DNA of 64,000 bases from Marsupella aquatica (taxonomy: Eukaryota > Plantae > Marchantiophyta), in NCBI GenBank assembly GCA_973895155.1, contig OZ316899.1, positions 10,042,287 to 10,106,286 on the forward strand, in the 5' to 3' direction. This document shows positions 15,598-61,650 of this stretch, in pieces. The translations under genes and the position numbers were made by a program. Every line of letters starts with the position of its first letter. Within the stretch, counting starts at the first letter, position 1. The notes beneath the pieces were generated by a model. That model had not been told where the DNA came from, ran no database searches, and was given only the letters and a program-made list of their open reading frames with translations.

Positions 15598-15639
15598 CTG
15601 ATCTGGTTTTGCTCCCTCTGAGATGTGATATTACGGAGC

Positions 15640-40590: not shown

Positions 40591-40712
40591 TTTCTTGGAC
40601 TTACATATATACATATATATATATCAGATTCTTTTCCATTTTTAACATTGGATAATTGGTTGTTCACAATATTGATGTTGATGAGATTGCATGCATTGAT
40701 GTTGTATGATAG

Positions 40713-44661: not shown

Positions 44662-45168
44662 AGAGTTGCCCAAGACCAAATTAAATGCTCACAGCAAAGA
44701 AGCTAAAAACACTCCTATAGAGTATCAACCCGGGGCAGCAAGTGGACCTACAGTCCCACCTCAAAATCCGGCCAGAAGCAATGCCAACAGTTGGTCTACA
44801 ACTGACACGACAACCAAGCATAAAACTCAGAAAGCAAAGGCATTTGCTGTACAAGTAATGAGGTCTATAAATGGCCTTAACAGAGTGGCCAAATTTGGTA
44901 CAAAATATTTAAAGAAGAGATGCTGACACTTAATTTCATTAACAAGGATATTGTCCCTTGCTTATTCCTGAAACACTTTGATCACAAATTTGTCATCCTG
45001 GCACTATATGTCAACGATATCAACATATTTGGTACGCCAGACCTCACTGCCAAAACAATTGAAACCTTAAAAAGTGTCTTTGAAATGAAAGATCTAGGAA
45101 AACCAAATTATTGCTTGGGCATTCAATTTGACCACCTAGAGGAAGGGATCTTCATTTCACAATCAACC
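44662..45168 (+). pseudogene. Copia element 3: RT middle fragment
   Basis: AVQVMRSINGL, PCLFLK, LALYVNDINIFG, FEMKDLG. Confidence 0.9.
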
Positions 45169-48100
45169 TGTGATGCCTAGACAGGAATCACTCGGCCGGT
45201 TAAGTGGGTAAAGCAGGAAGGCACCCTAGGAACACCTTAGTATAGTGACAAAACAAGGAAAATATAAACAATTAGGGGCAACCATGGAACCCGGGCAGAG
45301 GCCGGAGGTAAGGCTGAGGGTGAAAACCCGATTAGGGTTATGGCGCGTTAAGCGTCGGCGGCTAGGAAGGATCAACGGGAAGAAGGACCGGCAGAGGAGA
45401 GGGGTAAGGAGCGCTTGCAGGAGATGGTGGCTCATTTGCGAGCACGAACTAGGCAGACGACTACGGGAGGCCAACTACTGTCAGCTGCTTAGGCAAGCAC
45501 TCGGGGAGAGAGTAGATACCGACGATCAACCTAAGGAGGGTATGAGCAACGTCAATCAAGCGGCACATTTCTGGGGATGCCTGTTCGAACGGGCAACTGA
45601 GTACATCAAGACTTACGAGGACGAGGAGTCAGAAAGGGCAGCTCGAGAACGGCAGGAGCTCGCTCGATTGTGGGAGCTGCAGAAGACGGCTTTCTTAGGA
45701 GGCGAACTCATCAAGGACGAGTTCCTGTGGACGCCTACTTCCAATCAACTCGACGATCTTCTGTTTTGCAAGGACAGCGTCGTCGGCATCCGAGAGGCCA
45801 TCAAGAACTGCAACGACATACACTGGGAATTAAAGGGTAGCACGGAAAGGTGGACCCAGGCAACGGTGCTAGGAGAAACCTCCACGGCAGCAGAGATGAA
45901 GAGGAAGGGAGCCGTCAACGATGAAGCCACCCCGGCAAAAAGAACGAGGTCGACGGCACCAAAGAAGCCAGCCGAGCAGCAGAGCAGGAGGCAGGGAGAA
46001 GCCGAAGAGGAGGAGGTCGATCCCATCAAGGCCATTCCAACCAGGGATGACACCTGGAAGGGCTGGGCGGCAACCCTACCGGTGGAGGTGCAACTACATT
46101 TTGCACGGGAGGAGGATGCATGCTTTACGGCCATGCAGACCAAGAAGTACCAAGGCTTCATGGCCGGATCCGGCTTGGAGGCCTTTGTAAGATTACCATG
46201 GCTGAAGCCGGAGGTACCGGAGTCAGACCTATTAGAATTCGTGGGGTCATGGGAACCCGAGACCAATTGCACGAGGATATATGGGAAGGATTTCTATCTT
46301 ACTCCCAAGGTGATTGCCGAAGTGTTTGGCTTGCCGATGGGCAATAAGACCAAAGTTGATACCAGGAAGACCTTGCCTGACAAGGAGTTCCGGTCGTTCC
46401 CCGGGCCATCAACGAAGAATGGCTTCTTCCGGAACACCTGCACCAACCCGCACATAGGAGAGATGATCGACTTCTTGCGGGTGACCATGCATTGTAACTT
46501 GCCGAGGGCAGAGATCGGCAAGGCACAGGTCTATCTGGCAGAAAGGCCAGACCCAAGCCGGGACTACAACGGGTACCTCCTCAACCAATTGAAGAAGATC
46601 TTAAAGGAGGAGCAGCAGGTAATCGGCATGGGGAGCGTGTCGCGGCTTGGCTATCACATGCCGCTGTTGTGCCGGTATGCCAGAGGTCAGACTTTTGCCC
46701 CGGTACTTCCCCTGCAGGTAAGGGCACCCGAGGAAGCTCCAACGCCGAGGCCGTTGGCTGAGAAGCCTCAACCACCTGTTAGTCCTACGATCGAGCAGGT
46801 GTTTAGGCCCAGGAAGGAAGACTTGCCGATGCAGCAACCAGGCATGCAGAGTCTGCTGAAACTACTGGAGAAAGAAAAGAAATCGGCATCGGCAACAACA
46901 ACGGCAACGGCAACAATGCCGGACACTACTACAGAGGTAGGCCTACACCGGCTCACAAGAGAAAACCCCTTTGCTGGAGACGAGAGAATCAGGCCGGAAT
47001 CCAAGCCAGGTGTTCGAATGTACGTGGGAACCTCAAGCTCCGAATCTGAGGCAGAATTGCCTGAAGCTCCTACCGAGGAAGAGGAGAGGGAGAAGCCGGA
47101 AATCCAAGAGGTAGAGGAGGCAGTGGAGGACTGCAGCCATGATAATTCCGGCTATGGGTCGGACCATCACGTTCCAGGAGTAAGGACCTGTGGCCGGTTT
47201 GTCCCCACACTTCCAAGGGTAGTGCGAGGGGACCCCAACCAGCAGAGTAGCCCTGAGTCTCCCCCACCAGATGTTGCTCCCCCGAGCTTCGACGGCATAA
47301 AACAGACGGTGCAGGAATTTCAGGAGCGAATCAAGCAGGAGGAAGAGGCCGCCCTGGCTAAGGAAAAGGATTTACCAGGAGGAGATTGGCCGGAGGACAT
47401 CAGGCGGCTAGCCGAAAAAGGAAGCAAACCTCTAGCCACGATTGAAGAGATCCGCAGGACGGCTTGGGAGCAGAGGCCACGATGGGCGATGCCGATCACT
47501 TCTACTTACTCCACCTACGCTAAGAATAGAGCCATGGAGTATGGTGAGATGTGTGGGGAACTTGCGCTCGGCATCTTTGGAGAGGAGTTGGAGGTAGGAC
47601 CCTTTTTCCATAGGGAGCAGTTGGAGAAGCACCAATTAGAAGAAGCGGTGGCTTTAGAGAGAAGCAAGAAGGACGAGGTCATTCGGCGGCTTAGGAGGAT
47701 GGAAGCCGAGATTGAAGATCTAAGGGCGGCCAAGAAAGCCCAAGATGAACTGCGGATTAAACGACATGAGCTGAACATCATGCAGGGGCAGTTGGACGCC
47801 GCGCAGGCTGATAATCAGAATATCAAGGATAAACTGACTCAGACGCAGGAAGAGTTGGCCGACACGATCCAAGAAAGGGAAAAGTGGAAGCAAGAGCTGA
47901 AGAATACAGAGGAGGCCCACATAACAGCCAACAGCCGGGCCATGGCGGAGACCCAAAGAAAGGAATGGGCGTTGAAAGGGGAGCTCGAGAAAATCCGCGG
48001 AGCCCTTGAGCAGAAGGAGGTCGAGTTAGGGAAATCCTATCAAGGGATTATGGCGCTGCAGCAGGAGCTTGCGTCCCTGACGGCCAGCTTCAAGGCCGAC

Positions 48101-49825
48101 CTAAGGGAGAAGGACGAGATGCTCGAACAGACTTACGCCAAGATGAACCAGATGGAGTCTGTCATCATTGCAGAGCTCGACAAGGAGCTAAGAGCAACCC
48201 AGGAGGAGAGGGCTACCTTGAAGAAGGAATTGGAGGAAGCCCACAGGGAGCAGGAGGAGGCCAAAAACGAGCTGGAGGGGGCACGTAAGGACCTGGATGA
48301 AACCCAAGAGGAGTTGGAGGAAATCACGAGGAAGATGGAGAACCTACAGCGGCGGGCCGACAACCAAACAGAGCGGCTGAAGAAACAAGCCGCAGTATTT
48401 AAATGCTTAGCTGCAGCAGGTCCATCTCCTGTTGGGACAAACCAGTTACCAGGGGTGGTAATTGCCGAAGGACAAGCCGCGCCACCTGCACCAGTGCCGG
48501 AATTAAGTGGGAAGGGGAAGGGACCAGCTGCCGAGCCACCAACGAAGAAGAAGCGGAAACCTTCAGGGTCAAGGAGTAATACGACTTCACAGGCCGTGGT
48601 GATCAAGGAGGTAGACCCAGCACCGACCCCAGACAGGGTCACGGCTAAGGATCCAACTACCCTAGGGGAAGGGGAAGCCGAAGCCGAGGGAGTGGCTGAA
48701 GCCGAAGCCGTGAGAGTGGCTGAGGCCGAAGCCGTGGGTATTGCCGAGGCCGGTGTCGAGGCTGAAGCCGAAGGTGGACCCAGTCAGGCCGAGGGAGAGT
48801 TGACTCGGTCAAGGGCAGGTAATCTGTCAGTAGGCGGGCCAACGGCAGTGGCTGCGGAGGAAGTGTTGGGGGCGTCCATTGAGGATCCACCACCGGTGTC
48901 GTGACGGTGCAAGGGCGCCGTTCCTTTTAGGGAGGGCGGACGTGGAGGGAGGAGGCGTGAGTGGGCAGGGCGGGCATGGATCTCCACGTTTAGGATTAGG
49001 ATCAGAACCAGGAGCGGCCCTGACACTTAGCTTAGTGGGATTGCGGTCCCACTGGTAGGAGCAACACTTGTGCTCCTGCCTTGCTGTACATAGGTAGATT
49101 CGGGCAAGTAGATTACTGTTAAGTAGATTAGGCTTACGATGCAAAGAATGGCGGATCCACTACCAGGATAAGTACCTGGGCAGCGGGGAGCTCAGGGCCT
49201 CTTCTTTAGCAAGTTTTTAGTTTGCACCAGCCGGGCTGGGATCAAGTAGTACGAGAAGCTCTCGGTTAGTCATACAGTGACCCTTGTGTATATTCATGTT
49301 TCCTCATGCCTAAGAGCTGAATAGAGTTGGCCTCACGGCTTAGTTCGCAGAACTTGTGTATGAGATGTACTGTTTGTATGGCAAGTGCATGGTATGACTC
49401 AGTCAGAATGAGTCATTTTGCTATTTGTGTGTCGCATTAACTTGTGTGAAGAGTGCCCACATCAACAGAACGAAGGAAAGTAAGCAGGGGAGTGAGAGTT
49501 GGATGTGTCGAGCTGAGAGAGGTCTTAGCGGCTTAACCAAGCCTATTGGGGATCATTCCGGCGGCGGAATCCAAACATACCTAACAAGACGGAGGGGAAG
49601 ACAGGGGAAGACAGGGGAAGGCCTATATTAGGCCGGCTACGTATCTCATGACCCGATGAAGGATCTGTCCAGTATATGTGTGTAAAATGTTAATAGTAGT
49701 AGTAGAAGGTTAGCAGCGTCCCATGCCGCTAAGCCGCGGAAACGGCCTCGCCAAGCGCGAAACCTGCGGGAATCGGCTTGAGCTGGGGGGTTTCTTGGGT
49801 TTAGGGAGCCATGGGACGCACCACA
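45169..49825 (+). repeat. 5' LTR of the gypsy element (4657 bp)
   Basis: Direct repeat at a constant offset of 10881 bp. Confidence 0.96.
45284..48904 (+). CDS. LTR-encoded ~1206-aa protein (copy 1): Athila-ORF1/plant-transposon-domain-like region, acidic linker, long coiled coil, basic NLS-like motif, AEAE repeats
   Basis: Uninterrupted ORF from the first ATG at 45284; LLEFVGSW...IYGKDFYLTPKVIAEVFGLP; E/K/Q/L heptad-rich region; PPTKKKRK; domain identity is tentative. Confidence 0.85.
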   Translation: MEPGQRPEVRLRVKTRLGLWRVKRRRLGRINGKKDRQRRGVRSACRRWWLICEHELGRRLREANYCQLLRQALGERVDTDDQPKEGMSNVNQAAHFWGCLFERATEYIKTYEDEESERAARERQELARLWELQKTAFLGGELIKDEFLWTPTSNQLDDLLFCKDSVVGIREAIKNCNDIHWELKGSTERWTQATVLGETSTAAEMKRKGAVNDEATPAKRTRSTAPKKPAEQQSRRQGEAEEEEVDPIKAIPTRDDTWKGWAATLPVEVQLHFAREEDACFTAMQTKKYQGFMAGSGLEAFVRLPWLKPEVPESDLLEFVGSWEPETNCTRIYGKDFYLTPKVIAEVFGLPMGNKTKVDTRKTLPDKEFRSFPGPSTKNGFFRNTCTNPHIGEMIDFLRVTMHCNLPRAEIGKAQVYLAERPDPSRDYNGYLLNQLKKILKEEQQVIGMGSVSRLGYHMPLLCRYARGQTFAPVLPLQVRAPEEAPTPRPLAEKPQPPVSPTIEQVFRPRKEDLPMQQPGMQSLLKLLEKEKKSASATTTATATMPDTTTEVGLHRLTRENPFAGDERIRPESKPGVRMYVGTSSSESEAELPEAPTEEEEREKPEIQEVEEAVEDCSHDNSGYGSDHHVPGVRTCGRFVPTLPRVVRGDPNQQSSPESPPPDVAPPSFDGIKQTVQEFQERIKQEEEAALAKEKDLPGGDWPEDIRRLAEKGSKPLATIEEIRRTAWEQRPRWAMPITSTYSTYAKNRAMEYGEMCGELALGIFGEELEVGPFFHREQLEKHQLEEAVALERSKKDEVIRRLRRMEAEIEDLRAAKKAQDELRIKRHELNIMQGQLDAAQADNQNIKDKLTQTQEELADTIQEREKWKQELKNTEEAHITANSRAMAETQRKEWALKGELEKIRGALEQKEVELGKSYQGIMALQQELASLTASFKADLREKDEMLEQTYAKMNQMESVIIAELDKELRATQEERATLKKELEEAHREQEEAKNELEGARKDLDETQEELEEITRKMENLQRRADNQTERLKKQAAVFKCLAAAGPSPVGTNQLPGVVIAEGQAAPPAPVPELSGKGKGPAAEPPTKKKRKPSGSRSNTTSQAVVIKEVDPAPTPDRVTAKDPTTLGEGEAEAEGVAEAEAVRVAEAEAVGIAEAGVEAEAEGGPSQAEGELTRSRAGNLSVGGPTAVAAEEVLGASIEDPPPVS

Positions 49826-49894
49826 TTTTTGGCGCTAGATGGAGGGGGCATTTCTTAAGCCGTGAGATATGAAGTTAGAACGGAAGCGTAGGTA

Positions 49895-52888
49895 ATGACT
49901 GACCTTACGCCGAGGGAAGAAAGAGTGATTCAACGGGAGAGAGCTCGACTACAGCAGCTCGCCGGGTGGCATGATACACAGCGACTGAGAGGGGCAGAAA
50001 GAGCTGGTAGCTCCGAAACTGGAAGTGGCGTCGAAGAAGACATACCAGAAGAAGAGTCGGTAAGGAGAAGTGAGTCTCCAACCGACATGGGGGAACCAGA
50101 GGCACGGCCAGACGAGAGGCCAGGGACCAGATTGAGCCAGCGGTCGCGCATACATTACAAGGCATTTCATGGGAGAGGAGATGAGGATCCGGACGAATGG
50201 TTGGATGATTTCGAGGGAACCGCTGCAGCAAATGGAGAATCGGCCATCAAGATGCAGATTCTTCCCGGCCTGTTCAAGGGTGAGGCTAGGCCTTGGTACA
50301 GAGCATTAGATGTGGAAGATCAAGCCATCTGGGATATCTTCAAAACACTCTTTGTTAAGGAGTTTCGACCCATTGGAACTTCAGAACTAGCAGTGCTGAA
50401 GTTGGGACAACTTCGGTTCAAGGAGAACAAATCCTTCAGGAAGTTCTTGCAACGCTTTCAGAAACTGGTAAGACGTACAAAGACCAATGCATCTGAAGGT
50501 ATGCAACTTCAATGGTTGGTGAATGCTTTGCCACAGAAGATGAGTTTTGCAATTAGGAAGGAGAACCCGGAGACCTTAGCCGAAGCAATTAAGGATATTC
50601 AATTATACATTAATGCAGATATCACAAGCCGGAAGAAACAGCTTAAGTCTGAGAGTTCCTCATCAGAGGAGGGATCACCCCATAAGAAAAAAGATAAGAA
50701 GAAGAAACATTCCAAGAAGTCTAGAAGTGATAAGTCAAGCTCGAATAGTGGGAGTAGCAAGAGTGAGTCATCTTCTAGTTCTGAAGAAGAAAAAACTAGG
50801 AAAAGGAAGGGCAGAAGGAGAGGGAAGACGAAAGTCAAGATGGAGGCTAAGCCACCAGATAACATCGTAGCCCTTACCGAGCAACTTAAGACTATCATTG
50901 CAGAGGTAAAACCAAAGAAGAAGGTAGTACAGGAGGATAGCTCTGTATGGTGTGCCTTATGTTATAAAACCGGACACCATAAAGATGCTTGTCCTAAGCT
51001 TAATACTAATCATGTTCGGCATGTGGCCGAGATCAGACCATGTCAGGGAGAAGTAGAGTACTTTTTGGGAGATGCCGCTGATAGTGTTTTCGGCATCAGT
51101 GAGACTGGAGCACGAGACCTATCCAACAGACCTGCATCTCTGTGGTCAGGGTTAAGGAACAATCCAGGAGAGATGTATCCTCGGATTATTCAGAACCCGT
51201 CAGTACCTCCTAGGCCGAATGTGCAAAGATTTGCGGCGTGCTATAATTGTGGTCAACCTGGCCATTTTGCTAGAGAATGCCCGAATGCACGCAAACAGGG
51301 TGATGGACAACCAGCTCAGCTATGTATGGGATGCCGACAGGAAGGTCATATGCTAGGGCAATGTCCTACTTGGTTGGCAGGCCTGGCCGCAAATCATAAG
51401 CTTTTGCCGATCAAGATCTTACCGCCAGGTACTACCCCCGGAGGAGTTCAAATCAACCACATCGAACTAGGATGGCAAGAGGATGCCGAGGCAGAGTTCG
51501 TACCATCTGATGATGAGGCCGAAGCCCTATCAACCTTCTCAGAGGAGGATTTAGATCATGATTGCTACCGGGTCTCTACTCGATCTACCAGAAGGAAGGA
51601 AAGGTGGGATGGGCTGGCCAAAAATAAAGGGAAGGTTACGAAGGAAAGGATCGACTCTTCGTCAACATCAACAGAAGAAGAAGGGAGGGCTCCGGCAATA
51701 CAGGTAAGCCATGAGCCCACCATTGAAACCAATCCTTCACAAGATAGCGACTTCAATCGAGATCATCCTAAGTTGTTCTACCCCTCTGTTACGGCTAGTG
51801 TTAAGGAACAACTAAGAGAATTAGAAACCCTGGAGAATACCGAAGCCATTGCCAAGGATGTAAAACGAGCAAAAGCATTGTTTGCTTCGGAAGACCCAAC
51901 AGCTGTGGAGACTAGCGTGGCAAAACTGGCCGAATCCAAGATGGAAACACCACCAGAGGAGAAGCCGATTGTTCCCTATGACCTGGCTAAAGATGTACTA
52001 GAATCTAGAGTCTCGGCAACAGTAGGTCAACTATTGAAAAATAGCCCGTACTTCCGGAAGCAATTAAGGAAGGCTATTCTCGGCAAGCCGAGATTACCCA
52101 AGGTAGCAACCAGATCCGACGTACTAATGATAGAAGAAGATCAAGGAGCCCCAGCATTACCATTAATGATTCAAGGAGAATTATTACTACGGGTACCCAT
52201 CGATGGAGGATCAGGGGTATGTATTATGATTGATTCAACAGCAAAAGGGTGGGGTCTAACACCGGAGATGACTGGAAGAGTGTTGAACATGGCCAATGGA
52301 TATCAGGTCATTCCGACGGGAGTGTTAACCGGCATCAAGACAGAGATAGGAGGTATCTTCTTTAGCATTAACTATGTAGTAATGAAGCCGGTAAATCCTA
52401 CGTCATTCCGGCTATTGATTGGTAGGCCATGGCTGTACCTAGCCGAGGTAATAGAAGATTGGGGTAAAAAGCAGTTCACTTTCGGGACCCCCTCTATCAC
52501 GGTATCCTGGGACACTAAGGATGACCGTAGGAAAAGCATAAGGGAAGTAGATGGGTACGATAGTGGACTGGAGTCAGCCGATGAAGTACGTTGGTTAGAA
52601 TGCTTCACTAACCTAACCGAAGAAGGTGTCTTTGGACCAGAGGTACCCCCCAGCGGATTATGGCAAGAACCAATGGAAGGTGACTTGGAAGAAGAAGACG
52701 AAGAGGTCGAGGACTGCTTTACAATAGAATCCACCTTTTTAGCTGCAATTCCGGAGGAAGTTAAGGATGTAGACCAATTGGATGAAACGGCTAAGTGGGG
52801 AGCAATAGCAGGGACAGTGGATTTTCTGCAGGCGTTGTGGCAGAGCCGACGGGGTCCACAACGCCATCGATCATCGGCAAGGAATTAA
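49895..52888 (+). CDS. gag: Gypsy Gag plus aspartic protease (997 aa), three CCHC knuckles
   Basis: FHGRGDEDPDEWL, ARPWY, CALCYKTGHHKDAC, CYNCGQPGHFAREC, CMGCRQEGHMLGQC; PR VPIDGGSGVCIM...LLIGRPWL. Confidence 0.93.
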   Translation: MTDLTPREERVIQRERARLQQLAGWHDTQRLRGAERAGSSETGSGVEEDIPEEESVRRSESPTDMGEPEARPDERPGTRLSQRSRIHYKAFHGRGDEDPDEWLDDFEGTAAANGESAIKMQILPGLFKGEARPWYRALDVEDQAIWDIFKTLFVKEFRPIGTSELAVLKLGQLRFKENKSFRKFLQRFQKLVRRTKTNASEGMQLQWLVNALPQKMSFAIRKENPETLAEAIKDIQLYINADITSRKKQLKSESSSSEEGSPHKKKDKKKKHSKKSRSDKSSSNSGSSKSESSSSSEEEKTRKRKGRRRGKTKVKMEAKPPDNIVALTEQLKTIIAEVKPKKKVVQEDSSVWCALCYKTGHHKDACPKLNTNHVRHVAEIRPCQGEVEYFLGDAADSVFGISETGARDLSNRPASLWSGLRNNPGEMYPRIIQNPSVPPRPNVQRFAACYNCGQPGHFARECPNARKQGDGQPAQLCMGCRQEGHMLGQCPTWLAGLAANHKLLPIKILPPGTTPGGVQINHIELGWQEDAEAEFVPSDDEAEALSTFSEEDLDHDCYRVSTRSTRRKERWDGLAKNKGKVTKERIDSSSTSTEEEGRAPAIQVSHEPTIETNPSQDSDFNRDHPKLFYPSVTASVKEQLRELETLENTEAIAKDVKRAKALFASEDPTAVETSVAKLAESKMETPPEEKPIVPYDLAKDVLESRVSATVGQLLKNSPYFRKQLRKAILGKPRLPKVATRSDVLMIEEDQGAPALPLMIQGELLLRVPIDGGSGVCIMIDSTAKGWGLTPEMTGRVLNMANGYQVIPTGVLTGIKTEIGGIFFSINYVVMKPVNPTSFRLLIGRPWLYLAEVIEDWGKKQFTFGTPSITVSWDTKDDRRKSIREVDGYDSGLESADEVRWLECFTNLTEEGVFGPEVPPSGLWQEPMEGDLEEEDEEVEDCFTIESTFLAAIPEEVKDVDQLDETAKWGAIAGTVDFLQALWQSRRGPQRHRSSARN
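52819..52878 (+). promoter_or_regulatory. -1 programmed ribosomal frameshift signal (G GAU UUU plus H-type pseudoknot)
   Basis: Heptamer 52819-52825 phased in the gag frame; 5-nt spacer; stem GGCGTTGTGG (52831-40) / CCACAACGCC (52856-65); loop GCCGA (52845-49) pairs with TCGGC (52874-78); pol is in the -1 frame. Confidence 0.85.
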
Positions 52889-55800
52889 ATACCAAGGGAT
52901 CGGCATACAAGCCGATTACGAGGGCAGAACAAATTGAGGCCCTATTAGAAGCCGAGAGAGCACAGCGGCCTAACTCTCAGGAGCAAGAGGTGAATGAGAT
53001 GGACAGACACGATCCAGAGCCAAGGCAGGAAGGGGAGCCGACCACTAATTCAAAACCGAATAGACCGGTAAGGAGACCATCTATGGACACCAAGGAAGGG
53101 ACCGACTCGGCTAGTCCAGCCGAGATCCCAGTTTATGGAGGTATGAGATTAGAGAGACTGGAAGCCGAACTGGACCCGAATTTGAAGAAGCAGATTAATA
53201 TGATCCAAGCACGGCAATATCGGAAGCTCGACTTAGGAGAGGGAAGAGAACTGAACTTAGGGAGAAACCTAGCACCTGAGCTCGAGAAAGAGATCAGTGA
53301 CTTATTGATTGAATTTCAGGATGTGTTTGCATGGAGTCACCAAGATCTAAAGGGCATAGATCCAACACTAGGGGAACATCGAATTGATCTCATGTTAGGA
53401 GCCAAATCATTTCGACAACCAATTCGAAGGATGAACCCGAGGTATTCCCTGCTGGTCAAAACAGAAATCGACAAACTAGTGGAAGCTGGATTCATCACTC
53501 CAGTCCTGCATTCAGACTGGGTGTCTCCAATTGTGATAGTTCCCAAGAAAGCTGGACCCGATGGTAAACCCAAGATCCGGGTTTGTCAGGATTACAGGAA
53601 GCTGAATGAAGCAACATTAAAAGACCATTTTCCTTTACCGTTTACTGATATGGTACTAGACATGGTAGCCAGTCATGAACTATATTCATTCATGGATGGA
53701 TACTCTGGTTATAACCAAATCAGGATTCGGCAGGAAGACCAAATCAAGACGGCCTTCATCACGGAATGGGGGATCTATGTCTTCAATCGTATGCCGTTTG
53801 GACTCTGCAACGCACCAGCTATGTTCCAACGATTAATGGTGAACATTTTTCATGATTACTTGAGAAAGTTCATGGAAATCTTCATTGATGACTTTGCAGT
53901 ATTCGGGAAGGCATCGAAACATGCTAAATACCTCAGGAAAACCTTCATGAGATGTAGGGAGGTGGGTCTCAAGTTACACCCAGATAAATGTTTTTTTGCA
54001 GTAACCGAGGGGGTGCTACTAGGTCACAAGGTATCAAGGAAGGGCATTGAGATTGACAAAGGTAAGCTAGCAGTATGGCTAGATATCATGCAACCTAAGA
54101 ACATAAAGGATGTAAGATCCTTCTTGGGATGCATTGGTTACTATCGCCGGTTCATCAAGGATTTTGCCAAGCTAGCTTTACCATTAACCAATATGCTCAA
54201 GGCAGGAGCAGACTTCAAACCCACACCCGAACGAGTCACAGCGGTGGTAGAATTGAAGCAGATGTTAGTAGAGGCCCCAGTCATGATAGCACCGGACTGG
54301 AACAAAGATTTTCATGTTTTTGTAGATGTCTCGGGCTTCTGTATTGGCTCAGTACTAAGTCAGTTGGATGAGAAAAGAAGGGACCATCCCATATACTTCG
54401 CAAGCCGTCAGCTTGCCGATGCCGAACGGAACTACTCTACCACGGAAAGAGAAGCATTAGGAGTCATTTATTCTTGTAAAAAGTTTAGGCATTATTTACT
54501 AGGGTACAAGGTAATCTTTCATACTGATCATGAAAGTTTGAAGTACCTAGTCAATAAGCCGGACCTTACAGGCAGAGTAGCAAGATGGATTTTGCTATTA
54601 CAGGAGTTTGACTATGAGCTGAGGATCAAGCCAGGAAAGTTACATGCCAATGCCGACTTCTTTTCAAGGATCACAGGTAAACCTGCCACGGATTGCATCG
54701 ATGATCGATTCCCCGACGAGGAGCTATTCGTTGTGGAAATAGCTGGTACATGGTACCCTGAGATTTTACAATTTCTCAGCACTTCCAGATTACAGCCAGG
54801 ATTAAGCCGAGAGCAAGCCGCAGTCTTTGTGCGGAAGGTCAGACAGTATCAGTGCATTAAAGGCATACTGCACAAGCATGGAATCAACGGCACGATTCAA
54901 AGGTGTTTGGAGAAGAGAGAGGTAAAACGAGTCCTACGGGCCATGCATGGAGAGGAGGCCGGAGGACATTTTGCCCCAGTAACCACGTCTAAGAAGATAT
55001 TAAATGCCGGTTACTGGTGGCCCACCTTGCACAAAGATGTCTATCAGTTTATCAAACAATGCGATCCTTGTCAACGAGCGGGCGGACCAAGGGCGTCCAC
55101 CAGGCATCCACTGCACCCTATTCTACCTCTGGCACCATTCGAGAAGTGGGGTATTGATTACATTGGACCTCTGAAACCACTGACCCACCCTCGACGGAAC
55201 AAGTACATAATCCTGGCTACGGATTATGCAACTAAATGGGTAGAGGCCAAACCAACAACGAAGGATGATGCAATTACTACGGCTAGATTCATGTATGAGC
55301 AGATCTTCACCAGGTATGGAGCACCCCTAGAATTAGTTAGTGATAGAGGAACCCATTTTTTGAATGATATAATTAGTCGTTTAAATGAGCAGTATTTAGT
55401 TAAACATAGGCCTACTACTCCCTACCATCCAAAGGCAAACGGGTTGACAGAACGAGCAAACGGAATCATAGGAAAGATATTGAACAAAACAGTAGCTCAG
55501 AACAAACTCGATTGGGATGATAAATTGTTTGCTGCTGTTTTTGCTTACAATCTTGCCTATAAATCCACTACCGGTCATACACCCTTCTTCTTAACCTTTG
55601 GACAAGAAGCCCTGGTACCCATGCAACTTGAGATACCGACATTTCAAGTTACAATTGAGGAAAGAGCCTCAGCGGAGGAGAGCCTAAAGGAGCGAGAATA
55701 TAGGTTAGAAGCTTTAGAGGAAGCGAGAATGATTTCAGCCGAGAGAATAGAATATAGACAGAATATCATGAAGCAGCAGTATGATAAAAGGTTAAAAGTA

Positions 55801-56061
55801 GTTAGTATTCATACCGGTGATCTTGTGCTACTTTATGACAGTAGGTATAGTAGGTTTCCAGGAAAGCTTTACACTCGCTGGTTAGGACCCTTTAGAGTAA
55901 CCATGATGTTCCCCAATGGCTCCGTGCAATTGGCCAACATTACGGGAGAGGTATATCCAGTTCGCATCCATTATGACCGCCTCAAGAAATACTATATGGA
56001 CGAAGATGAAGTTGTTCGCGAGGACGCTTCACAATTAAGTGGGGAGCTATGTGATGCCTAG
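52819..56061 (+). CDS. pol: Gypsy Pol (RT-RNase H-integrase), no chromodomain
   Basis: WVSPIVIVPKK, DYRKLN, MDGYSGYNQI, MPFGLCNAP, FIDD; DVSG/YSTTEREAL/TDH; H...H...CDPC, GIDYIG, SDRG, TERAN, WLGPF; the stop lies inside the 3' LTR. Confidence 0.96.
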   Translation, partial: GFSAGVVAEPTGSTTPSIIGKELNTKGSAYKPITRAEQIEALLEAERAQRPNSQEQEVNEMDRHDPEPRQEGEPTTNSKPNRPVRRPSMDTKEGTDSASPAEIPVYGGMRLERLEAELDPNLKKQINMIQARQYRKLDLGEGRELNLGRNLAPELEKEISDLLIEFQDVFAWSHQDLKGIDPTLGEHRIDLMLGAKSFRQPIRRMNPRYSLLVKTEIDKLVEAGFITPVLHSDWVSPIVIVPKKAGPDGKPKIRVCQDYRKLNEATLKDHFPLPFTDMVLDMVASHELYSFMDGYSGYNQIRIRQEDQIKTAFITEWGIYVFNRMPFGLCNAPAMFQRLMVNIFHDYLRKFMEIFIDDFAVFGKASKHAKYLRKTFMRCREVGLKLHPDKCFFAVTEGVLLGHKVSRKGIEIDKGKLAVWLDIMQPKNIKDVRSFLGCIGYYRRFIKDFAKLALPLTNMLKAGADFKPTPERVTAVVELKQMLVEAPVMIAPDWNKDFHVFVDVSGFCIGSVLSQLDEKRRDHPIYFASRQLADAERNYSTTEREALGVIYSCKKFRHYLLGYKVIFHTDHESLKYLVNKPDLTGRVARWILLLQEFDYELRIKPGKLHANADFFSRITGKPATDCIDDRFPDEELFVVEIAGTWYPEILQFLSTSRLQPGLSREQAAVFVRKVRQYQCIKGILHKHGINGTIQRCLEKREVKRVLRAMHGEEAGGHFAPVTTSKKILNAGYWWPTLHKDVYQFIKQCDPCQRAGGPRASTRHPLHPILPLAPFEKWGIDYIGPLKPLTHPRRNKYIILATDYATKWVEAKPTTKDDAITTARFMYEQIFTRYGAPLELVSDRGTHFLNDIISRLNEQYLVKHRPTTPYHPKANGLTERANGIIGKILNKTVAQNKLDWDDKLFAAVFAYNLAYKSTTGHTPFFLTFGQEALVPMQLEIPTFQVTIEERASAEESLKEREYRLEALEEARMISAERIEYRQNIMKQQYDKRLKVVSIHTGDLVLLYDSRYSRFPGKLYTRWLGPFRVTMMFPNGSVQLANITGEVYPVRIHYDRLKKYYMDEDEVVREDASQLSGELCDA

Positions 56062-59000
56062 ACAGGAATCACTCGGCCGGTTAAGTGGGTAAAGCAGGAA
56101 GGCACCCTAGGAACACCTTAGTATAGTGACAAAACAAGGAAAATATAAACAATTAGGGGCAACCATGGAACCCGGGCAGAGGCCGGAGGTAAGGCTGAGG
56201 GTGAAAACCCGATTAGGGTTATGGCGCGTTAAGCGTCGGCGGCTAGGAAGGATCAACGGGAAGAAGGACCGGCAGAGGAGAGGGGTAAGGAGCGCTTGCA
56301 GGAGATGGTGGCTCATTTGCGAGCACGAACTAGGCAGACGACTACGGGAGGCCAACTACTGTCAGCTGCTTAGGCAAGCACTCGGGGAGAGAGTAGATAC
56401 CGACGATCAACCTAAGGAGGGTATGAGCAACGTCAATCAAGCGGCACATTTCTGGGGATGCCTGTTCGAACGGGCAACTGAGTACATCAAGACTTACGAG
56501 GACGAGGAGTCAGAAAGGGCAGCTCGAGAACGGCAGGAGCTCGCTCGATTGTGGGAGCTGCAGAAGACGGCTTTCTTAGGAGGCGAACTCATCAAGGACG
56601 AGTTCCTGTGGACGCCTACTTCCAATCAACTCGACGATCTTCTGTTTTGCAAGGACAGCGTCGTCGGCATCCGAGAGGCCATCAAGAACTGCAACGACAT
56701 ACACTGGGAATTAAAGGGTAGCACGGAAAGGTGGACCCAGGCAACGGTGCTAGGAGAAACCTCCACGGCAGCAGAGATGAAGAGGAAGGGAGCCGTCAAC
56801 GATGAAGCCACCCCGGCAAAAAGAACGAGGTCGACGGCACCAAAGAAGCCAGCCGAGCAGCAGAGCAGGAGGCAGGGAGAAGCCGAAGAGGAGGAGGTCG
56901 ATCCCATCAAGGCCATTCCAACCAGGGATGACACCTGGAAGGGCTGGGCGGCAACCCTACCGGTGGAGGTGCAACTACATTTTGCACGGGAGGAGGATGC
57001 ATGCTTTACGGCCATGCAGACCAAGAAGTACCAAGGCTTCATGGCCGGATCCGGCTTGGAGGCCTTTGTAAGATTACCATGGCTGAAGCCGGAGGTACCG
57101 GAGTCAGACCTATTAGAATTCGTGGGGTCATGGGAACCCGAGACCAATTGCACGAGGATATATGGGAAGGATTTCTATCTTACTCCCAAGGTGATTGCCG
57201 AAGTGTTTGGCTTGCCGATGGGCAATAAGACCAAAGTTGATACCAGGAAGACCTTGCCTGACAAGGAGTTCCGGTCGTTCCCCGGGCCATCAACGAAGAA
57301 TGGCTTCTTCCGGAACACCTGCACCAACCCGCACATAGGAGAGATGATCGACTTCTTGCGGGTGACCATGCATTGTAACTTGCCGAGGGCAGAGATCGGC
57401 AAAGCACAGGTCTATCTGGCAGAAAGGCCAGACCCAAGCCGGGACTACAACGGGTACCTCCTCAACCAATTGAAGAAGATCTTAAAGGAGGAGCAGCAGG
57501 TAATCGGCATGGGGAGCGTGTCGCGGCTTGGCTATCACATGCCGCTATTGTGCCGGTATGCCAGAGGTCAGACTTTTGCCCCGGTACTTCCCCTGCAGGT
57601 AAGGGCACCCGAGGAAGCTCCAACGCCGAGGCCGTTGGCTGAGAAGCCTCAACCACCTGTTAGTCCTACGATCGAGCAGGTGTTTAGGCCCAGGAAGGAA
57701 GACTTGCCGATGCAGCAACCAGGCATGCAGAGTCTGCTGAAACTACTGGAGAAAGAAAAGAAATCGGCATCGGCAACAACAACGGCAACGGCAACAATGC
57801 CGGACACTACTACAGAGGTAGGCCTACACCGGCTCACAAGAGAAAACCCCTTTGCTGGAGACGAGAGAATCAGGCCGGAATCCAAGCCAGGTGTTCGAAT
57901 GTACGTGGGAACCTCAAGCTCCGAATCTGAGGCAGAATTGCCTGAAGCTCCTACCGAGGAAGAGGAGAGGGAGAAGCCGGAAATCCAAGAGGTAGAGGAG
58001 GCAGTGGAGGACTGCAGCCATGATAATTCCGGCTATGGGTCGGACCATCACGTTCCAGGAGTAAGGACCTGTGGCCGGTTTGTCCCCACACTTCCAAGGG
58101 TAGTGCGAGGGGACCCCAACCAGCAGAGTAGCCCTGAGTCTCCCCCACCAGATGTTGCTCCCCCGAGCTTCGACGGCATAAAACAGACGGTGCAGGAATT
58201 TCAGGAGCGAATCAAGCAGGAGGAAGAGGCCGCCCTGGCTAAGGAAAAGGATTTACCAGGAGGAGATTGGCCGGAGGACATCAGGCGGCTAGCCGAAAAA
58301 GGAAGCAAACCTCTAGCCACAATTGAAGAGATCCGCAGGACGGCTTGGGAGCAGAGGCCACGATGGGCGATGCCGATCACTTCTACTTACTCCACCTACG
58401 CTAAGAATAGAGCCATGGAGTATGGTGAGATGTGTGGGGAACTTGCGCTCGGCATCTTTGGAGAGGAGTTGGAGGTAGGACCCTTTTTCCATAGGGAGCA
58501 GTTGGAGAAGCACCAATTAGAAGAAGCGGTGGCTTTAGAGAGAAGCAAGAAGGACGAGGTCATTCGGCGGCTTAGGAGGATGGAAGCCGAGATTGAAGAT
58601 CTAAGGGCGGCCAAGAAAGCCCAAGATGAACTGCGGATTAAACGACATGAGCTGAACATCATGCAGGGGCAGTTGGACGCCGCGCAGGCTGATAATCAGA
58701 ATATCAAGGATAAACTGACTCAGACGCAGGAAGAGTTGGCCGACACGATCAAAGAAAGGGAAAAGTGGAAGCAAGAGCTGAAGAATACAGAGGAGGCCCA
58801 CATAACAGCCAACAGCCGGGCCATGGCGGAGACCCAAAGAAAGGAATGGGCGTTGAAAGGGGAGCTCGAGAAAATCCGCGGAGCCCTTGAGCAGAAGGAG
58901 GTCGAGTTAGGGAAATCCTATCAAGGGATTATGGCGCTGCAGCAGGAGCTTGCGTCCCTGACGGCCAGCTTCAAGGCCGACCTAAGGGAGAAGGACGAGA

Positions 59001-60706
59001 TGCTCGAACAGACTTACGCCAAGATGAACCAGATGGAGTCTGTCATCATTGCAGAGCTCGACAAGGAGCTAAGAGCAACCCAGGAGGAGAGGGCTACCTT
59101 GAAGAAGGAATTGGAGGAAGCCCACAGGGAGCAGGAGGAGGCCAAAAACGAGCTGGAGGGGGCACGTAAGGACCTGGATGAAACCCAAGAGGAGTTGGAG
59201 GAAATCACGAGGAAGATGGAGAACCTACAGCGGCGGGCCGACAACCAAACAGAGCGGCTGAAGAAACAAGCCGCAGTATTTAAATGCTTAGCTGCAGCAG
59301 GTCCATCTCCTGTTGGGACAAACCAGTTACCAGGGGTGGTAATTGCCGAAGGACAAGCCGCGCCACCTGCACCAGTGCCGGAATTAAGTGGGAAGGGGAA
59401 GGGACCAGCTGCCGAGCCACCAACGAAGAAGAAGCGGAAACCTTCAGGGTCAAGGAGTAATACGACTTCACAGGCCGTGGTGATCAAGGAGGTAGACCCA
59501 GCACCGACCCCAGACAGGGTCACGGCTAAGGATCCAACTACCCTAGGGGAAGGGGAAGCCGAAGCCGAGGGAGTGGCTAAAGCCGAAGCCGTGAGAGTGG
59601 CTGAGGCCGAAGCCGTGGGTATTGCCGAGGCCGGTGTCGAGGCTGAAGCCGAAGGTGGACCCAGTCAGGCCGAGGGAGAGTTGACTCGGTCAAGGGCAGG
59701 TAATCTGTCAGTAGGCGGGCCAACGGCAGTGGCTGCGGAGGAAGTGTTGGGGGCGTCCATTGAGGATCCACCACCGGTGTCGTGACGGTGCAAGGGCGCC
59801 GTTCCTTTTAGGGAGGGCGGACGTGGAGGGAGGAGGCGTGAGTGGGCAGGGCGGGCACGGATCTCCACGTTTAGGATTAGGATCAGAACCAGGAGCGGCC
59901 CTGACACTTAGCTTAGTGGGATTGCGGTCCCACTGGTAGGAGCAACACTTGTGCTCCTGCCTTGCTGTACATAGGTAGATTCGGGCAAGTAGATTACTGT
60001 TAAGTAGATTAGGCTTACGATGCAAAGAATGGCGGATCCACTACCAGGATAAGTACCTGGGCAGCGGGGAGCTCAGGGCCTCTTCTTTAGCAAGTTTTTA
60101 GTTTGCACCAGCCGGGCTGGGATCAAGTAGTACGAGAAGCTCTCGGTTAGTCATACAGTGACCCTTGTGTATATTCATGTTTCCTCATGCCTAAGAGCTG
60201 AATAGAGTTGGCCTCACGGCTTAGTTCGCAGAACTTGTGTATGAGATGTACTGTTTGTATGGCAAGTGCATGGTATGACTCAGTCAGAATGAGTCATTTT
60301 GCTATTTGTGTGTCGCATTAACTTGTGTGAAGAGTGCCCACATCAACAGAACGAAGGAAAGTAAGCAGGGGAGTGAGAGTTGGATGTGTCGAGCTGAGAG
60401 AGGTCTTAGCGGCTTAACCAAGCCTATTGGGGATCATTCCGGCGGCGGAATCCAAACATACCTAACAAGACGGAGGGGAAGACAGGGGAAGACAGGGGAA
60501 GGCCTATATTAGGCCGGCTACGTATCTCATGACCCGATGAAGGATCTGTCCAGTATATGTGTGTAAAATGTTAATAGTAGTAGTAGAAGGTTAGCAGCGT
60601 CCCATGCCGCTAAGCCGCGGAAACGGCCTCGCCAAGCGCGAAACCTGCGGGAATCGGCTTGAGCTGGGGGGTTTCTTGGGTTTAGGGAGCCATGGGACGC
60701 ACCACA
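56050..60706 (+). repeat. 3' LTR of the gypsy element (4657 bp)
   Basis: Preceded by the PPT; followed by TSD CAACC. Confidence 0.96.
56165..59785 (+). CDS. LTR-encoded ~1206-aa protein (copy 2)
   Basis: Same as copy 1 except two amino-acid changes seen (Q>K, E>K). Confidence 0.85.
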   Translation: MEPGQRPEVRLRVKTRLGLWRVKRRRLGRINGKKDRQRRGVRSACRRWWLICEHELGRRLREANYCQLLRQALGERVDTDDQPKEGMSNVNQAAHFWGCLFERATEYIKTYEDEESERAARERQELARLWELQKTAFLGGELIKDEFLWTPTSNQLDDLLFCKDSVVGIREAIKNCNDIHWELKGSTERWTQATVLGETSTAAEMKRKGAVNDEATPAKRTRSTAPKKPAEQQSRRQGEAEEEEVDPIKAIPTRDDTWKGWAATLPVEVQLHFAREEDACFTAMQTKKYQGFMAGSGLEAFVRLPWLKPEVPESDLLEFVGSWEPETNCTRIYGKDFYLTPKVIAEVFGLPMGNKTKVDTRKTLPDKEFRSFPGPSTKNGFFRNTCTNPHIGEMIDFLRVTMHCNLPRAEIGKAQVYLAERPDPSRDYNGYLLNQLKKILKEEQQVIGMGSVSRLGYHMPLLCRYARGQTFAPVLPLQVRAPEEAPTPRPLAEKPQPPVSPTIEQVFRPRKEDLPMQQPGMQSLLKLLEKEKKSASATTTATATMPDTTTEVGLHRLTRENPFAGDERIRPESKPGVRMYVGTSSSESEAELPEAPTEEEEREKPEIQEVEEAVEDCSHDNSGYGSDHHVPGVRTCGRFVPTLPRVVRGDPNQQSSPESPPPDVAPPSFDGIKQTVQEFQERIKQEEEAALAKEKDLPGGDWPEDIRRLAEKGSKPLATIEEIRRTAWEQRPRWAMPITSTYSTYAKNRAMEYGEMCGELALGIFGEELEVGPFFHREQLEKHQLEEAVALERSKKDEVIRRLRRMEAEIEDLRAAKKAQDELRIKRHELNIMQGQLDAAQADNQNIKDKLTQTQEELADTIKEREKWKQELKNTEEAHITANSRAMAETQRKEWALKGELEKIRGALEQKEVELGKSYQGIMALQQELASLTASFKADLREKDEMLEQTYAKMNQMESVIIAELDKELRATQEERATLKKELEEAHREQEEAKNELEGARKDLDETQEELEEITRKMENLQRRADNQTERLKKQAAVFKCLAAAGPSPVGTNQLPGVVIAEGQAAPPAPVPELSGKGKGPAAEPPTKKKRKPSGSRSNTTSQAVVIKEVDPAPTPDRVTAKDPTTLGEGEAEAEGVAKAEAVRVAEAEAVGIAEAGVEAEAEGGPSQAEGELTRSRAGNLSVGGPTAVAAEEVLGASIEDPPPVS

Positions 60707-61650
60707 CAACCTATACTAAGAAAATCTTGAAACAATTCAATATGCATAATGCACACCCATGGAATTGAGGTCACTCAACCCAGGAAAAGACATGATCAGG
60801 AAAAGATTGGAAGTAGAACCAATACTAGGCTTAGAGAAGCCTTACCTTTCAACAGTGGGGGCCCTAATGTATTTAGCAAATCAGACGAGACCAGACATCT
60901 CGTTTGCAGTAAACCTCCTTGCATGCCATAGTGCCCAGCCGACGATCCGACACTGGAACGGGATAAAACAAGTGTTCAAATACCTGCAAGGAACAAGTGA
61001 CATGGGTCTCTATTTCCCAAAGGAAAACAATCCAACATTAATCGAGTACATAGATGTGGGCTACTTATCAGACCCGGACAATGCAAAGTTGCAGATAGGG
61101 TTCTTACAAGGCTCAAAACAATATCATGGAAGATTACAAAACAGACACTCAACCACCTCATTGAATCACTCTAAAATCATAGCTTTATGAGGCCAGTTGG
61201 GAATGCATTTGGGTAAGACAGATGATACATCACATCCACAAGAATACAAGATGCCCTACACTGCAAGAGCCCATGACTATTTATGAGGACGATTGTCCCT
61301 AAGTAGACCAGATCTCCTAGGGAATGCATTTGGCTGAGATATAGATGATACATCACATCCACAAGAATACATGATGCCCTACATTGCAAGAGTCCATGGC
61401 TATTTATGAGGACAATCGTCCCTACGTAGACCAGATCTCCTAGGGATTTATCAAAGGTGAAAGAACAAAGCATATAGCTCCTAAATGTTTCTACACACAT
61501 GAGCAGCATGGTGACCAAATCAGAGTAGAATGGATTCCAACATCATTGAACAGAGCAGACCTCTTCACAAAGCCGCTACCACCGGCCCTACACAATCAAC
61601 ATGTACATGGAATCGGGATGAGAACACTATCAATGTTGCTGCAAAGCTCA
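60707..61650 (+). pseudogene. Copia element 3: RT C-terminus and RNase H
   Basis: [49 protein letters not shown]. Confidence 0.9.
61199..61442. repeat. ~121-bp tandem duplication within the copia RNase H
   Basis: gggaatgcatttgg...gtagaccagatctccta at 61199 and 61320, moderately diverged. Confidence 0.9.

Follow-up and report, generated by a model that had tools for sequence, protein, structure and literature searches.

A Ty3/gypsy retrotransposon of Marsupella aquatica with a 1,206-codon accessory gene inside its LTRs

Why would an LTR retrotransposon carry a gene of 1,206 codons within each of its LTRs, how might the gene have come to lie there, and what could its product do? Extra ORFs are common in plant LTR retrotransposons, and the available text of two studies treats their function as an open question (PMC7264820, PMC6317226). 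Our literature search for LTR-located ORFs in plant retrotransposons gave no precedent among titles and abstract openings. The element described here lies in a stretch of 64,000 nucleotides of M. aquatica contig OZ316899.1, referred to below as the window.

Results

The element is a young and intact Ty3/gypsy retrotransposon of 15.5 kb (Table 1). Its two LTRs, which start with TGTG and end with CACA, are 99.87% identical, with 6 substitutions and no gaps, and five of these six differences fall within the ORF (3 silent and 2 missense). The 5-bp TSD CAACC stands on either side of the element, which is inserted into a decayed copia RT whose frame resumes past the element. A PBS-like TGGCGCTAGATGGAGGGGG, which we take to be of the tRNA-Arg type, starts 5 nt past the 5' LTR, and the polypurine tract (PPT) AAGTGGGGAGCTA directly adjoins the 3' LTR. 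TG...CA direct repeats, TSD, PBS and PPT are thus all present, as expected of a Ty3/gypsy LTR retrotransposon. Pfam matches, and for the protease a motif in the translation, place gag, protease, RT, RNase H and integrase in Ty3/gypsy order. RNase H is directly followed by integrase in the pol translation, and neither a chromodomain nor an extra RNase H was matched by Pfam at E up to 1, as in the Athila lineage. A classic slippery heptamer was looked for in the gag/pol overlap and none was found. Since the pol stop lies 12 nt into the 3' LTR, the PPT is inside the pol coding sequence and the internal region has no room for an extra gene.

Table 1. Features of the element and its flanks, in window coordinates
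Feature	Position	Strand	Basis or remark
TSD CAACC, left copy	45164..45168	+	flanking comparison
5' LTR, 4,657 bp, TGTG...CACA	45169..49825	+	repeat alignment; a contig of run X6 begins at 45169; joints in run X2 leave at 49825
TATAAA, candidate promoter of the LTR gene (putative function)	45263..45268	+	21 nt before Met1, 279 nt before Met87
Accessory ORF, 5' LTR, 1,206 codons	45284..48904	+	alternative start Met87 at 45542
N-terminal conserved block, aa 87-202	45542..45889	+	matched by P0125, P0127, P0129
Core globular domain, aa 263-474	46070..46705	+	predicted VANC21-like fold; PF20167/PF03078-like by embedding
Long charged, likely coiled-coil region, about aa 780-1040	47620..48400	+	sequence reading only
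NLS-like PPTKKKRK, aa 1084-1091 (putative)	48533..48556	+	translation
LTR non-coding end, 921 nt; likely main promoter, R and U5	48905..49825	+	TATA-like TATATT at 49289 and 49624; weak PPT-like tract at 48915-48940
Primer-binding site TGGCGCTAGATGGAGGGGG	49830..49848	+	sequence
gag-protease ORF, 997 aa	49895..52888	+	Retrotrans_gag, CCHC knuckles
pol ORF (RT, RNase H, integrase), 1,088 codons	52795..56061	+	overlaps gag in a different frame; stop in 3' LTR
Motif A (GTTCGCG...CAC), conserved, with polypurine tract	56014..56049	+	within pol coding sequence
3' LTR, 4,657 bp	56050..60706	+	repeat alignment
Accessory ORF, 3' LTR, 1,206 codons	56165..59785	+	2 residues differ from 5' copy
TSD CAACC, right copy	60707..60711	+	flanking comparison

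The ORF begins at LTR nt 116 and occupies 3,621 of the 4,657 nt (78%). Both copies are open, and each of the remaining five frames of the 5' copy is interrupted by 24-57 stops. The original prediction, namely true LTRs that each hold one uninterrupted ORF of about 1200 aa whose product has an NLS-like PPTKKKRK and no TM segment, is borne out in all these points. Indeed, the best 19-residue hydropathy of the protein is 1.04, indicating that there is no TM segment, and an env-like role was dropped on this ground. By contrast, TATA-like candidates had been reported only near 49620-49680, which overlooked TATAAA at 45263, the single strict TATA(A/T)A of the window LTR and upstream of the ORF. A motif scan found no AATAAA in the LTR. 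Translation of about two thirds of the ORF gives acidic, low-complexity or coiled-coil-like sequence. The true start codon may be Met87 rather than Met1; codons 1-86 have codon-usage scores between coding and non-coding in trained windows that are biased upward, so that codon usage does not fix the start.

The ORF had no Pfam family match except a chance QLQ at E 0.19, and PF20167, PF03078 and PF10536 matched neither the window ORF nor seven ORFs from related loci at E up to 1. A word-indexed homolog search with the ORF returned none of 6,126 candidates of 663-2,111 aa and none of 2,763 candidates of 1,379-3,935 aa, the latter range being too long to be useful. There was no match in a PDB sequence search, and viral contigs contained neither a relative nor a match to motif A.

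A first model, made from a shallower alignment (A1), had a pLDDT of 43, and a viral-library search with it gave nothing at E < 0.001. The core domain (aa 263-474) was subsequently modelled at pLDDT 86. In a search of 48,161 chains, DNA-bound VANC21 was the sole chain with Z > 5 (Z 8.2; next 2.3), although the tool cautions that models lacking any clear match often have a best Z of 7-8, and helical ones up to about 13-14. The two structures superpose with an rmsd of 4.3 over 204 of 212 residues, at 8% identity, and VANC21 also had the top TM-score (0.47) among the Foldseek matches listed, at E 2.8. By embedding, the core domain lies at 0.87-0.89 to PF20167/PF03078-type clusters and L003, one of the related loci, at 0.92, with PF20167 making up 26 of its 30 listed matches; both are leads without an E-value. 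The Athila-ORF1-like block predicted earlier therefore stands as an embedding likeness (0.87-0.92 to PF20167/PF03078) and, with no Pfam family matched, not as an HMM match. Because the best match of the core model is DNA-bound VANC21, the model suggests that the protein may be a nuclear anti-silencing factor, and the predicted fold fits the earlier idea of a nuclear trans-acting factor. In the available text of the sources, VANC is described as demethylating its own transposons in a sequence-specific manner (PMC5735166) and as a structural homolog of MAIN, and coiled-coil pentamers are modelled both for VANC and for Athila-domain proteins (PMC13547354). Unlike in many VANC targets, no tandem arrays of short target-like motifs stand out in the non-coding part of the LTR.

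The position of the gene was compared among 78 related metagenome loci, none of whose contigs contains both LTRs. In 8 of the 78, the PPT and LTR start come directly after pol and are followed by a homologous ORF. Motif A occurs on the + strand in 10 of the 78 loci, adjoining the pol stop in nine of them and lying about 90 nt past the extra ORF in L001. Hence the conserved motif-A/PPT precedes the gene in LTR-borne elements and comes after it in L001. In the sister clade represented by L001, the same gene is internal, upstream of a 1-kb LTR and between two PPT-like tracts, one of which, immediately past pol, is nearly identical to the working PPT. The full internal layout is that of L001 only, as the contigs of L009 and L053 end too early; in L009, TG comes next after the post-pol tract. 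The TGTGGGAG start in L002 and L005 is matched by the LTR end (C/T)TCCCACA ahead of the PBS, and the PBS of L001, L002 and L005 is of the tRNA-Asp type, one base off the FIDEL tRNA-Asp PBS. A TATA-like box is found within the LTR, 162-311 nt upstream of the ORF start, in five relatives. The ORFs of L009 and L010 are broken, and the protein library represents many of the ORF homologs by short fragments. The LTR-borne layout is a lineage trait. A hairpin at motif A is possible, but compensatory changes are absent in 10 sequences and we therefore treat motif A as a sequence motif only.

A profile built from the seven locus ORFs matched 11 loci, 4 of these outside the training set, and on its own recovered both window ORFs at E 0.0013. 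Profile-profile comparison of the window family with the locus ORFs gave 96.4% and E 1.1e-9, and ORFs of the internal and LTR types can be aligned with 18 invariant columns. These profile comparisons show the ORF to be homologous to ORFs downstream of pol, which one clade has in the internal region and others have within the LTR. A relic PPT past the window ORF is a borderline candidate: of the four tracts used as queries, two were matched as well by 5-7 of 100 shuffles and the other two by at least 90.

The pol forms a separate clade with bryophyte sequences, in trees whose angiosperm members were unclassified matches. Matches to pol include Calypogeia and Riccia sequences (P0054, P0084, P0036, P0038). 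A tree of RT-RH-INT groups the window clade with the LTR-borne clade (85/97; node unstarred), and its grouping with the internal clade is rejected at p-AU 0.015, the AU groups having been named after the trees were seen. The integrase-only tree retains a polytomy.

The family is abundant. Read depth over the ORF, relative to the internal region, was 4.16x in run X1 and 3.91x in run X2, resembling the rest of the LTR, whose non-coding end stood at 3.4x (X1) and 4.7x (X2), and the LTR-end junctions are present in other read runs. Location of the gene within the LTR is accordingly family-wide (ORF/gag-pol depth ratio about 4) and is shared by related elements. The 14 ORF differences listed among family reads (5 silent and 9 missense) are uninformative for dN/dS.

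Discussion

The account that we favour, at slightly better than an even chance, is that this young, intact Ty3/gypsy element gained a U3 gene by a switch of PPT, and that the predicted VANC21-like product is a nuclear DNA-binding protein, which probably works against the silencing of the family to which it belongs. Since sister elements have the same gene inside or outside the LTR, the choice of PPT emerges as a route to kilobase growth of LTRs and to gene capture. An Athila-ORF1-type gene would originally have been internal, 3' of pol. Most likely, plus-strand priming then shifted to a PPT upstream of this post-pol gene, drawing it into U3, and the switch would have run from internal to LTR. 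With the ORF in U3, genomic RNA would begin and end within the last 0.9 kb of the LTR and a separate ORF mRNA would start from the TATA box near the LTR start. Each reverse transcription would copy the gene into both LTRs and solo LTRs would retain it, while the protein would bind family DNA sequence-specifically and oligomerise via its coiled coil.

How far do other readings account for the same observations? An assembly artefact, named at the outset as a ground for refutation, or a one-off duplication in the window copy, is extremely improbable. No contig among those listed spans the whole element, but the artefact is largely ruled out by the LTR differences, the TSD, the read depth and the layout of distant relatives, and the interrupted host-element frame and the junctions in other runs likewise oppose either version. 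It is quite unlikely that the ORF lies in R/U5 rather than U3, with TATAAA at 45263 as the main promoter, the ORF as first cistron and gag expressed via splicing. The only strict TATA of the window LTR is indeed upstream of the ORF, relatives have a clear TATA and a pyrimidine-rich leader at the same place, and the LTR has no AATAAA. However, the L001 homolog follows pol and its entire 1-kb LTR is about the size of the 921 nt past the window ORF, L007 has TATAAA and a pyrimidine-rich stretch downstream of its ORF, and minus-strand strong-stop DNA of about 4.5 kb would be required. The switch could also have run in the opposite direction, the LTR-borne state being ancestral in the bryophyte clade and the L001 clade having shortened its LTR via a new PPT behind the gene, with the old PPT after pol as a relic. 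The near-identity of the L001 post-pol tract to its working PPT, the LTR-borne layout of two of the three clades of known layout and the weak basal nodes of the tree would fit this, but we hold it to be unlikely: the LTR-borne clades form a group that excludes L001, and the more distant Athila lineage is described as having internal 3' extra ORFs in the available text of PMC6317226 and PMC7264820.

The function of the protein and the fate of the solo LTRs each allow another reading, and we regard both as having a real, though minor, chance. With the same architecture, the protein could have the RNA, the particle or the integration complex of the element as its target instead of silencing marks, for example in nuclear import, export, targeting or scaffolding via the coiled coil. 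A common fold does not show function, and acidic, low-complexity or coiled-coil-like sequence makes up about two thirds of the ORF; the available text of PMC13547354 describes Athila-domain proteins as little-studied accessory factors for which numerous host contacts are predicted, and the fold-mate MAIN as promoting rather than opposing silencing. Against this, the one match with a solved structure is an anti-silencing factor bound to DNA, and the NLS-like motif is present while a TM segment is absent. Alternatively, the location may be a neutral by-product, in which case full elements would use the gene solely from their 3' LTR and the copies in solo LTRs would be silent and decaying. The broken ORFs of L009 and L010 and the many fragmentary homologs point that way, but the layout persists among elements that share only about 50% integrase identity, and five relatives have kept the TATA-like box upstream of the gene.

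Athila is among the closest known comparisons. Like the window element, it is a non-chromovirus Ty3/gypsy lineage without extra RNase H; its 3' extra ORFs (ATHILA ORF1, PF03078; Transposase_32, PF20167) are the families nearest the window core domain by embedding, and a sense post-pol accessory gene is shared with relatives of the window element. A second PPT has been ascribed to Athila elements, but a literature search gave no confirmation of it. In Athila the gene lies between pol and PPT, whereas here it is inside the LTR, and its families lack an HMM match to the window ORF. The Athila PBS is predominantly tRNA-Asp (72%; Neumann 2019); the window PBS differs, and relatives L001, L002 and L005 are of the Asp type. 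A sunflower Athila 3' aORF is described, in the available text, as carrying PF20167 and a predicted NLS (PMC11728184).

VANC21 of the Mutator-like DNA transposon VANDAL21 (PDB 9lnk/9lnj) and MAIN/PMD resemble the window protein in its predicted core fold, and VANC21 is likewise an accessory transposon gene with a coiled coil, which for the window gene is predicted. Yet it belongs to a DNA transposon, while its counterpart here is encoded in a retrotransposon LTR, at 8% identity, and its DNA binding and demethylation are putative. Among retroviruses, MMTV sag is a U3 gene, and HIV nef and foamy-virus bel overlap U3. There, a protein gene is duplicated with the LTR at every replication, as proposed here, but the proteins are unrelated and much smaller than the window protein of 1,120-1,206 aa, which has a plant host and a putative U3 position. 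Ogre, Retrosat2/RIRE3 and Grande/Retand also combine LTRs of 3-5 kb with a conserved extra ORF, but as far as the available text goes these ORFs are internal, upstream of gag or antisense after pol (PMC6317226, PMC3485330, PMC7264820); gene23 of Grande is described there as nuclear with its own promoter (PMC7264820). Ogre and Retand have an extra (archaeal-type) RNase H, which is absent from the window pol. Phygy and Selgy, moss and lycophyte non-chromoviruses, resemble the window element in their non-seed-plant hosts and in having PPT and LTR closely after pol. They differ in a 4-bp TSD, a tRNA-Trp or tRNA-Ala PBS and a size of 4.4-10 kb, with no extra ORFs listed in the available text (PMC6317226), and the window element, with its 5-bp TSD, 15.5 kb and extra ORF, falls outside both groups.

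Given a gene in the LTR and a predicted VANC21-like fold, even lone LTRs would probably disseminate a gene protecting the family against host silencing. Solo-LTR formation is the usual way in which hosts disarm LTR retrotransposons, and in this case the accessory gene would come through it intact. In a further, improbable extension, the LTR of an entire bryophyte lineage of gypsy elements is a self-contained mobile gene with its own promoter, a poly(A) signal and a VANC-fold protein that opposes silencing sequence-specifically. The PPT switch would double this gene at every cycle and each solo LTR would keep it, so that host removal of elements by LTR recombination would scatter sources of trans-acting protection for the family, as a retrotransposon analogue of VANC. 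The predicted fold ties one extra-ORF family to a solved anti-silencing structure and thereby offers a direct test. On the practical side, such elements would be taken for gag-pol plus a host gene by any LTR finder whose maximum LTR length is set low.

An accessory gene inside the LTRs of a gypsy element

Self-comparison of the window reveals a single long direct repeat (4,657 bp, 6 substitutions, no gaps), both copies of which run from TGTG to CACA. CAACC lies on both sides of the element, four T separate the 5' LTR from a PBS-like tract (TGGCGCTAGATGGAGGGGG) that we take to be of the tRNA-Arg type, and a purine tract directly adjoins the 3' LTR, so that the repeats are true LTRs, as the original prediction held. 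Its claim of a complete gene of about 1,200 aa per LTR is likewise borne out, as a 1,206-codon ORF is open in each copy; the remaining five frames carry 24-57 stops. The internal region consists of gag-protease and pol only, without a Pfam match to a chromodomain or extra RNase H, and pol stops 12 nt into the 3' LTR. The gag and pol frames differ where they overlap by 94 nt, and the classic slippery heptamer was not found there. The insertion site is a decayed copia RT, whose reading frame gives GIFISQST to the left of the element and YTKKILKQF to its right. At about 1e-8 substitutions per site per year, the LTR divergence of 0.13% corresponds to a very young insertion, tens of thousands of years old.

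Is the gene also LTR-borne in other copies? We compared the window with four of 13 listed read runs (X1, X2, X4 and X6), none recorded as RNA. Summed depth over the element, which by the caution attached to the method is no copy number, reaches hundreds of thousands in X1 and X2. Relative to the internal bins, depth is 4.16x (X1) and 3.91x (X2) over the ORF, and 3.4x and 4.7x over the non-coding LTR end. Were the ORF internal in most copies, its depth would be expected to follow that of gag-pol, which it does not; ratios greater than 2 point tentatively to solo LTRs or deleted copies. Moreover, 45169 is precisely where an X6 contig begins and 49825 is where several joints in X2 depart, so that other insertions have the same ends. 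The gene is therefore LTR-borne beyond this one insertion, as had been anticipated. Among 12 of the 22 indel rows, the non-coding LTR end of 921 nt has seven single-base indels. In the ORF, one row adds 3 nt in frame and another, at 48831 and 24 codons ahead of the stop, lacks 1 nt in a minority of depth. Among the 40 of 1,148 substitution rows listed (38 in ORFs, two outside), 5 of 14 are silent and 9 missense in the ORF, with 8/12 silent in gag and 6/12 in pol, tallies that are no measure of selection. Near-identical pieces of 45000-56045 (0-9 differences per 270-610 nt) occur in all four runs, each with a different organism label, and their depth ranges from tens to hundreds of thousands; this could be due to close species, contamination or horizontal transfer.

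Related elements and the origin of the LTR-borne gene

The nearest named pol relatives by identity, among 120 listed, are from liverworts (Calypogeia, 64-66% over partial length; Riccia, about 53%), which makes a bryophyte the likely host. An integrase scan of metagenome contigs provided 78 retained loci (L numbers below), from the top 80 among 97 confirmed stretches; 15 of the loci were inspected in detail. A profile of the window family matches long sense post-pol ORFs in seven loci (E <= 0.05). Seven such ORFs align well with one another, and their own profile reaches 96.4% probability against the window-family profile versus 77.7% against the window sequence alone, and recovers both window ORFs (E 0.0013) plus 4 further loci. 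A conserved GTTCGCG...CAC (motif A) stands ahead of the purine tract, after which the LTR opens with TG. Ten of the 78 loci contain motif A; nine of them (L002-L007, L010, L011 and L042) have it where pol ends, which is also its place in the window, and a homologous ORF follows in eight of these nine, the L011 sequence ending too soon. Where measured, the ORF begins 450-770 nt into the LTR. In L002 and L005, the LTR start (TGTGGGAG) agrees with the LTR terminus found ahead of the PBS, in support of the boundary. L003, L006 and L007 contain the entire ORF, which measures 632-853 codons between stops; the 218, 876 and 1,106 nt beyond it, respectively, contain neither a further motif A nor a PBS.

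L001 is arranged differently: pol is followed by a PPT-like tract lacking motif A and then by an ORF of 745 codons; motif A with PPT comes next, ahead of a 1-kb LTR, a PBS of the Asp type and gag. L008, L009 and L053 share its tract type and clade, and their sequences end before the layout becomes visible. Neither ORF profile matches in the more distant L012-L014, near Marchantia pol, nor does either match a 252-codon post-pol ORF of this Marchantia-like clade (L014:7076-7831).

A quick integrase tree (66 rows) unites the window, Riccia, L001-type and L002-type (LTR-borne) elements in one clade (100) whose base is open. In a 22-row RT-RH-INT tree, cut down from 28 rows for speed, the window and L002-type clades group together (85/97), and a topology forcing the window clade together with that of L001 fails the AU test (p-AU 0.015, for groups named after the trees were seen). 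The simplest reading of these sequences would be that the LTR-borne state was gained once. It is conceivable that the change ran in reverse, the LTR-borne state being first and the L001 layout derived. As for a gain, reverse transcription turns RNA downstream of the priming PPT into the U3 of both LTRs, and Athila4 is reported to have two PPTs. Given purine tracts flanking a post-pol gene, as in L001, priming from the upstream tract would suffice to place the gene in U3. At 921 nt, the stretch behind the window ORF is about the size of the entire L001 LTR, and a weak PPT-like tract follows the ORF stop, its score reached by 5-7 of 100 shuffles at best. Once in U3, the gene would be made in two copies per replication cycle, be transcribed from a promoter close to where the LTR begins, and stay whole in solo LTRs.

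The LTR-borne accessory gene is real, lineage-wide and unusual. It is of a known type, and what is new is its location inside the LTR; both its origin and its function are testable. Retroviral genes in or overlapping U3 include MMTV sag, HIV nef and foamy bel. The literature covered, to which subscription papers mostly did not belong, yielded no case of a plant retrotransposon gene lying within the LTR. In that literature, extra ORFs are grouped by their position relative to the polyprotein, 5' or 3', 16% of Athila elements have PF03078 and LTRs reach about 5 kb (PMC6317226, whose per-element data could contain LTR-located cases), extra ORFs are placed in the internal region (PMC7264820) and ORF0 lies upstream of gag-pol (PMC3485330).

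The accessory protein

An Athila-ORF1/plant-transposon-like block had been proposed. The Pfam scan of the window ORF returned no genuine family match, and the proposal persists as a lead from Atlas embeddings, in which the core domain (aa 263-474) is near PF20167 and PF03078 clusters (0.87-0.89) and the L003 ORF reaches 0.92 to the same cluster types. A full HMMER scan with aa 88-480 matched 21 proteins at E <= 0.001; library protein P0131 was excluded as a repeat-protein false match. Two blocks are conserved (aa 87-256 and about 250-470). The ten homologues inspected are mostly unnamed Logan proteins; Calypogeia fissa CAM6090539.1 (744 aa) has a similar layout (basic, domain, acidic, helical). 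The N-terminus of another homologue, P0127, is in register with Met87 (45542). TATAAA at 45263 is 21 nt from Met1 and 279 nt from Met87, and since the latter spacing falls inside the 162-311 nt between TATA-like box and ORF start in five relatives, the product may comprise 1,120 aa from Met87. The leader before Met87 contains two out-of-frame ATGs, one of which is AGG in all four runs. Donor-like GTAAGG and acceptor-like CTGTCAG sites (45308-45487) form a candidate intron that would remove codons 9-68 in frame, along with both of these ATGs.

A first structure model of the core domain failed; a later one, from an alignment of 19 sequences including locus ORFs, reached pLDDT 86 and pTM 0.85. 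Foldseek returned nothing at E < 0.001 for this model; among the matches listed, DNA-bound VANC21 (9lnj), a plant transposon anti-silencing factor, has TM 0.47 and the remaining rows 0.18 or less. Exhaustive alignment to 48,161 chains gave VANC21-DNA (9lnk) a Z of 8.2, near the tool's caution level in absolute terms (rmsd 4.3, 204/212 residues); the second-best row has 2.3. This margin and the coverage of the full domain speak for real kinship of the modelled domain with VANC21. Given the predicted fold, the coiled coil and an NLS-like motif, a VANC-like anti-silencing role would be the best single guess.

Neighbouring elements

Features of the window, in order of position
Feature	Coordinates	Strand	Remarks
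Second copia, split polyprotein	2240-8185	-	near-identical 140-bp repeats 2240-2379, 8046-8185
Two ORF pieces	10899-12398	-	without Pfam match
LINE	13357-18965	+	DUF4283, endonuclease, RT; interrupted by in-frame stops
Direct repeats of intact copia	23119-23316, 28607-28804		198 bp, identical
Copia polyprotein	23638-28332	-	intact, 1,545 aa
Likely CACTA/En-Spm element	35000-44300
GGGTCCGAT-type inverted repeats	near 35070-35430, 36900-37020, 38330-38430, 44230-44280		CACTA/En-Spm candidate
Divergent 416-codon ORF	38360-37110	-	no family; inside CACTA/En-Spm candidate
SET-domain ORF	39757-40590		E 1.7e-5; inside CACTA/En-Spm candidate
Transposase_21 match	41971-42501		in CACTA/En-Spm candidate
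LTRs	45169-49825, 56050-60706
Accessory ORFs	45284-48904, 56165-59785	+	one per LTR
gag-protease	49895-52888		internal region
gag/pol overlap	52795-52888
pol	52795-56061		RT, RNase H, integrase; internal region
Related gypsy integrase C-terminus, short fragment	63024-63286	-	42-47% identity; no motif A behind

The SET domain may derive from a chromatin gene captured by the transposon, and the intact copia element is a very young insertion. The two ORF pieces give the impression, and only that, of a decayed DNA-transposon transposase.
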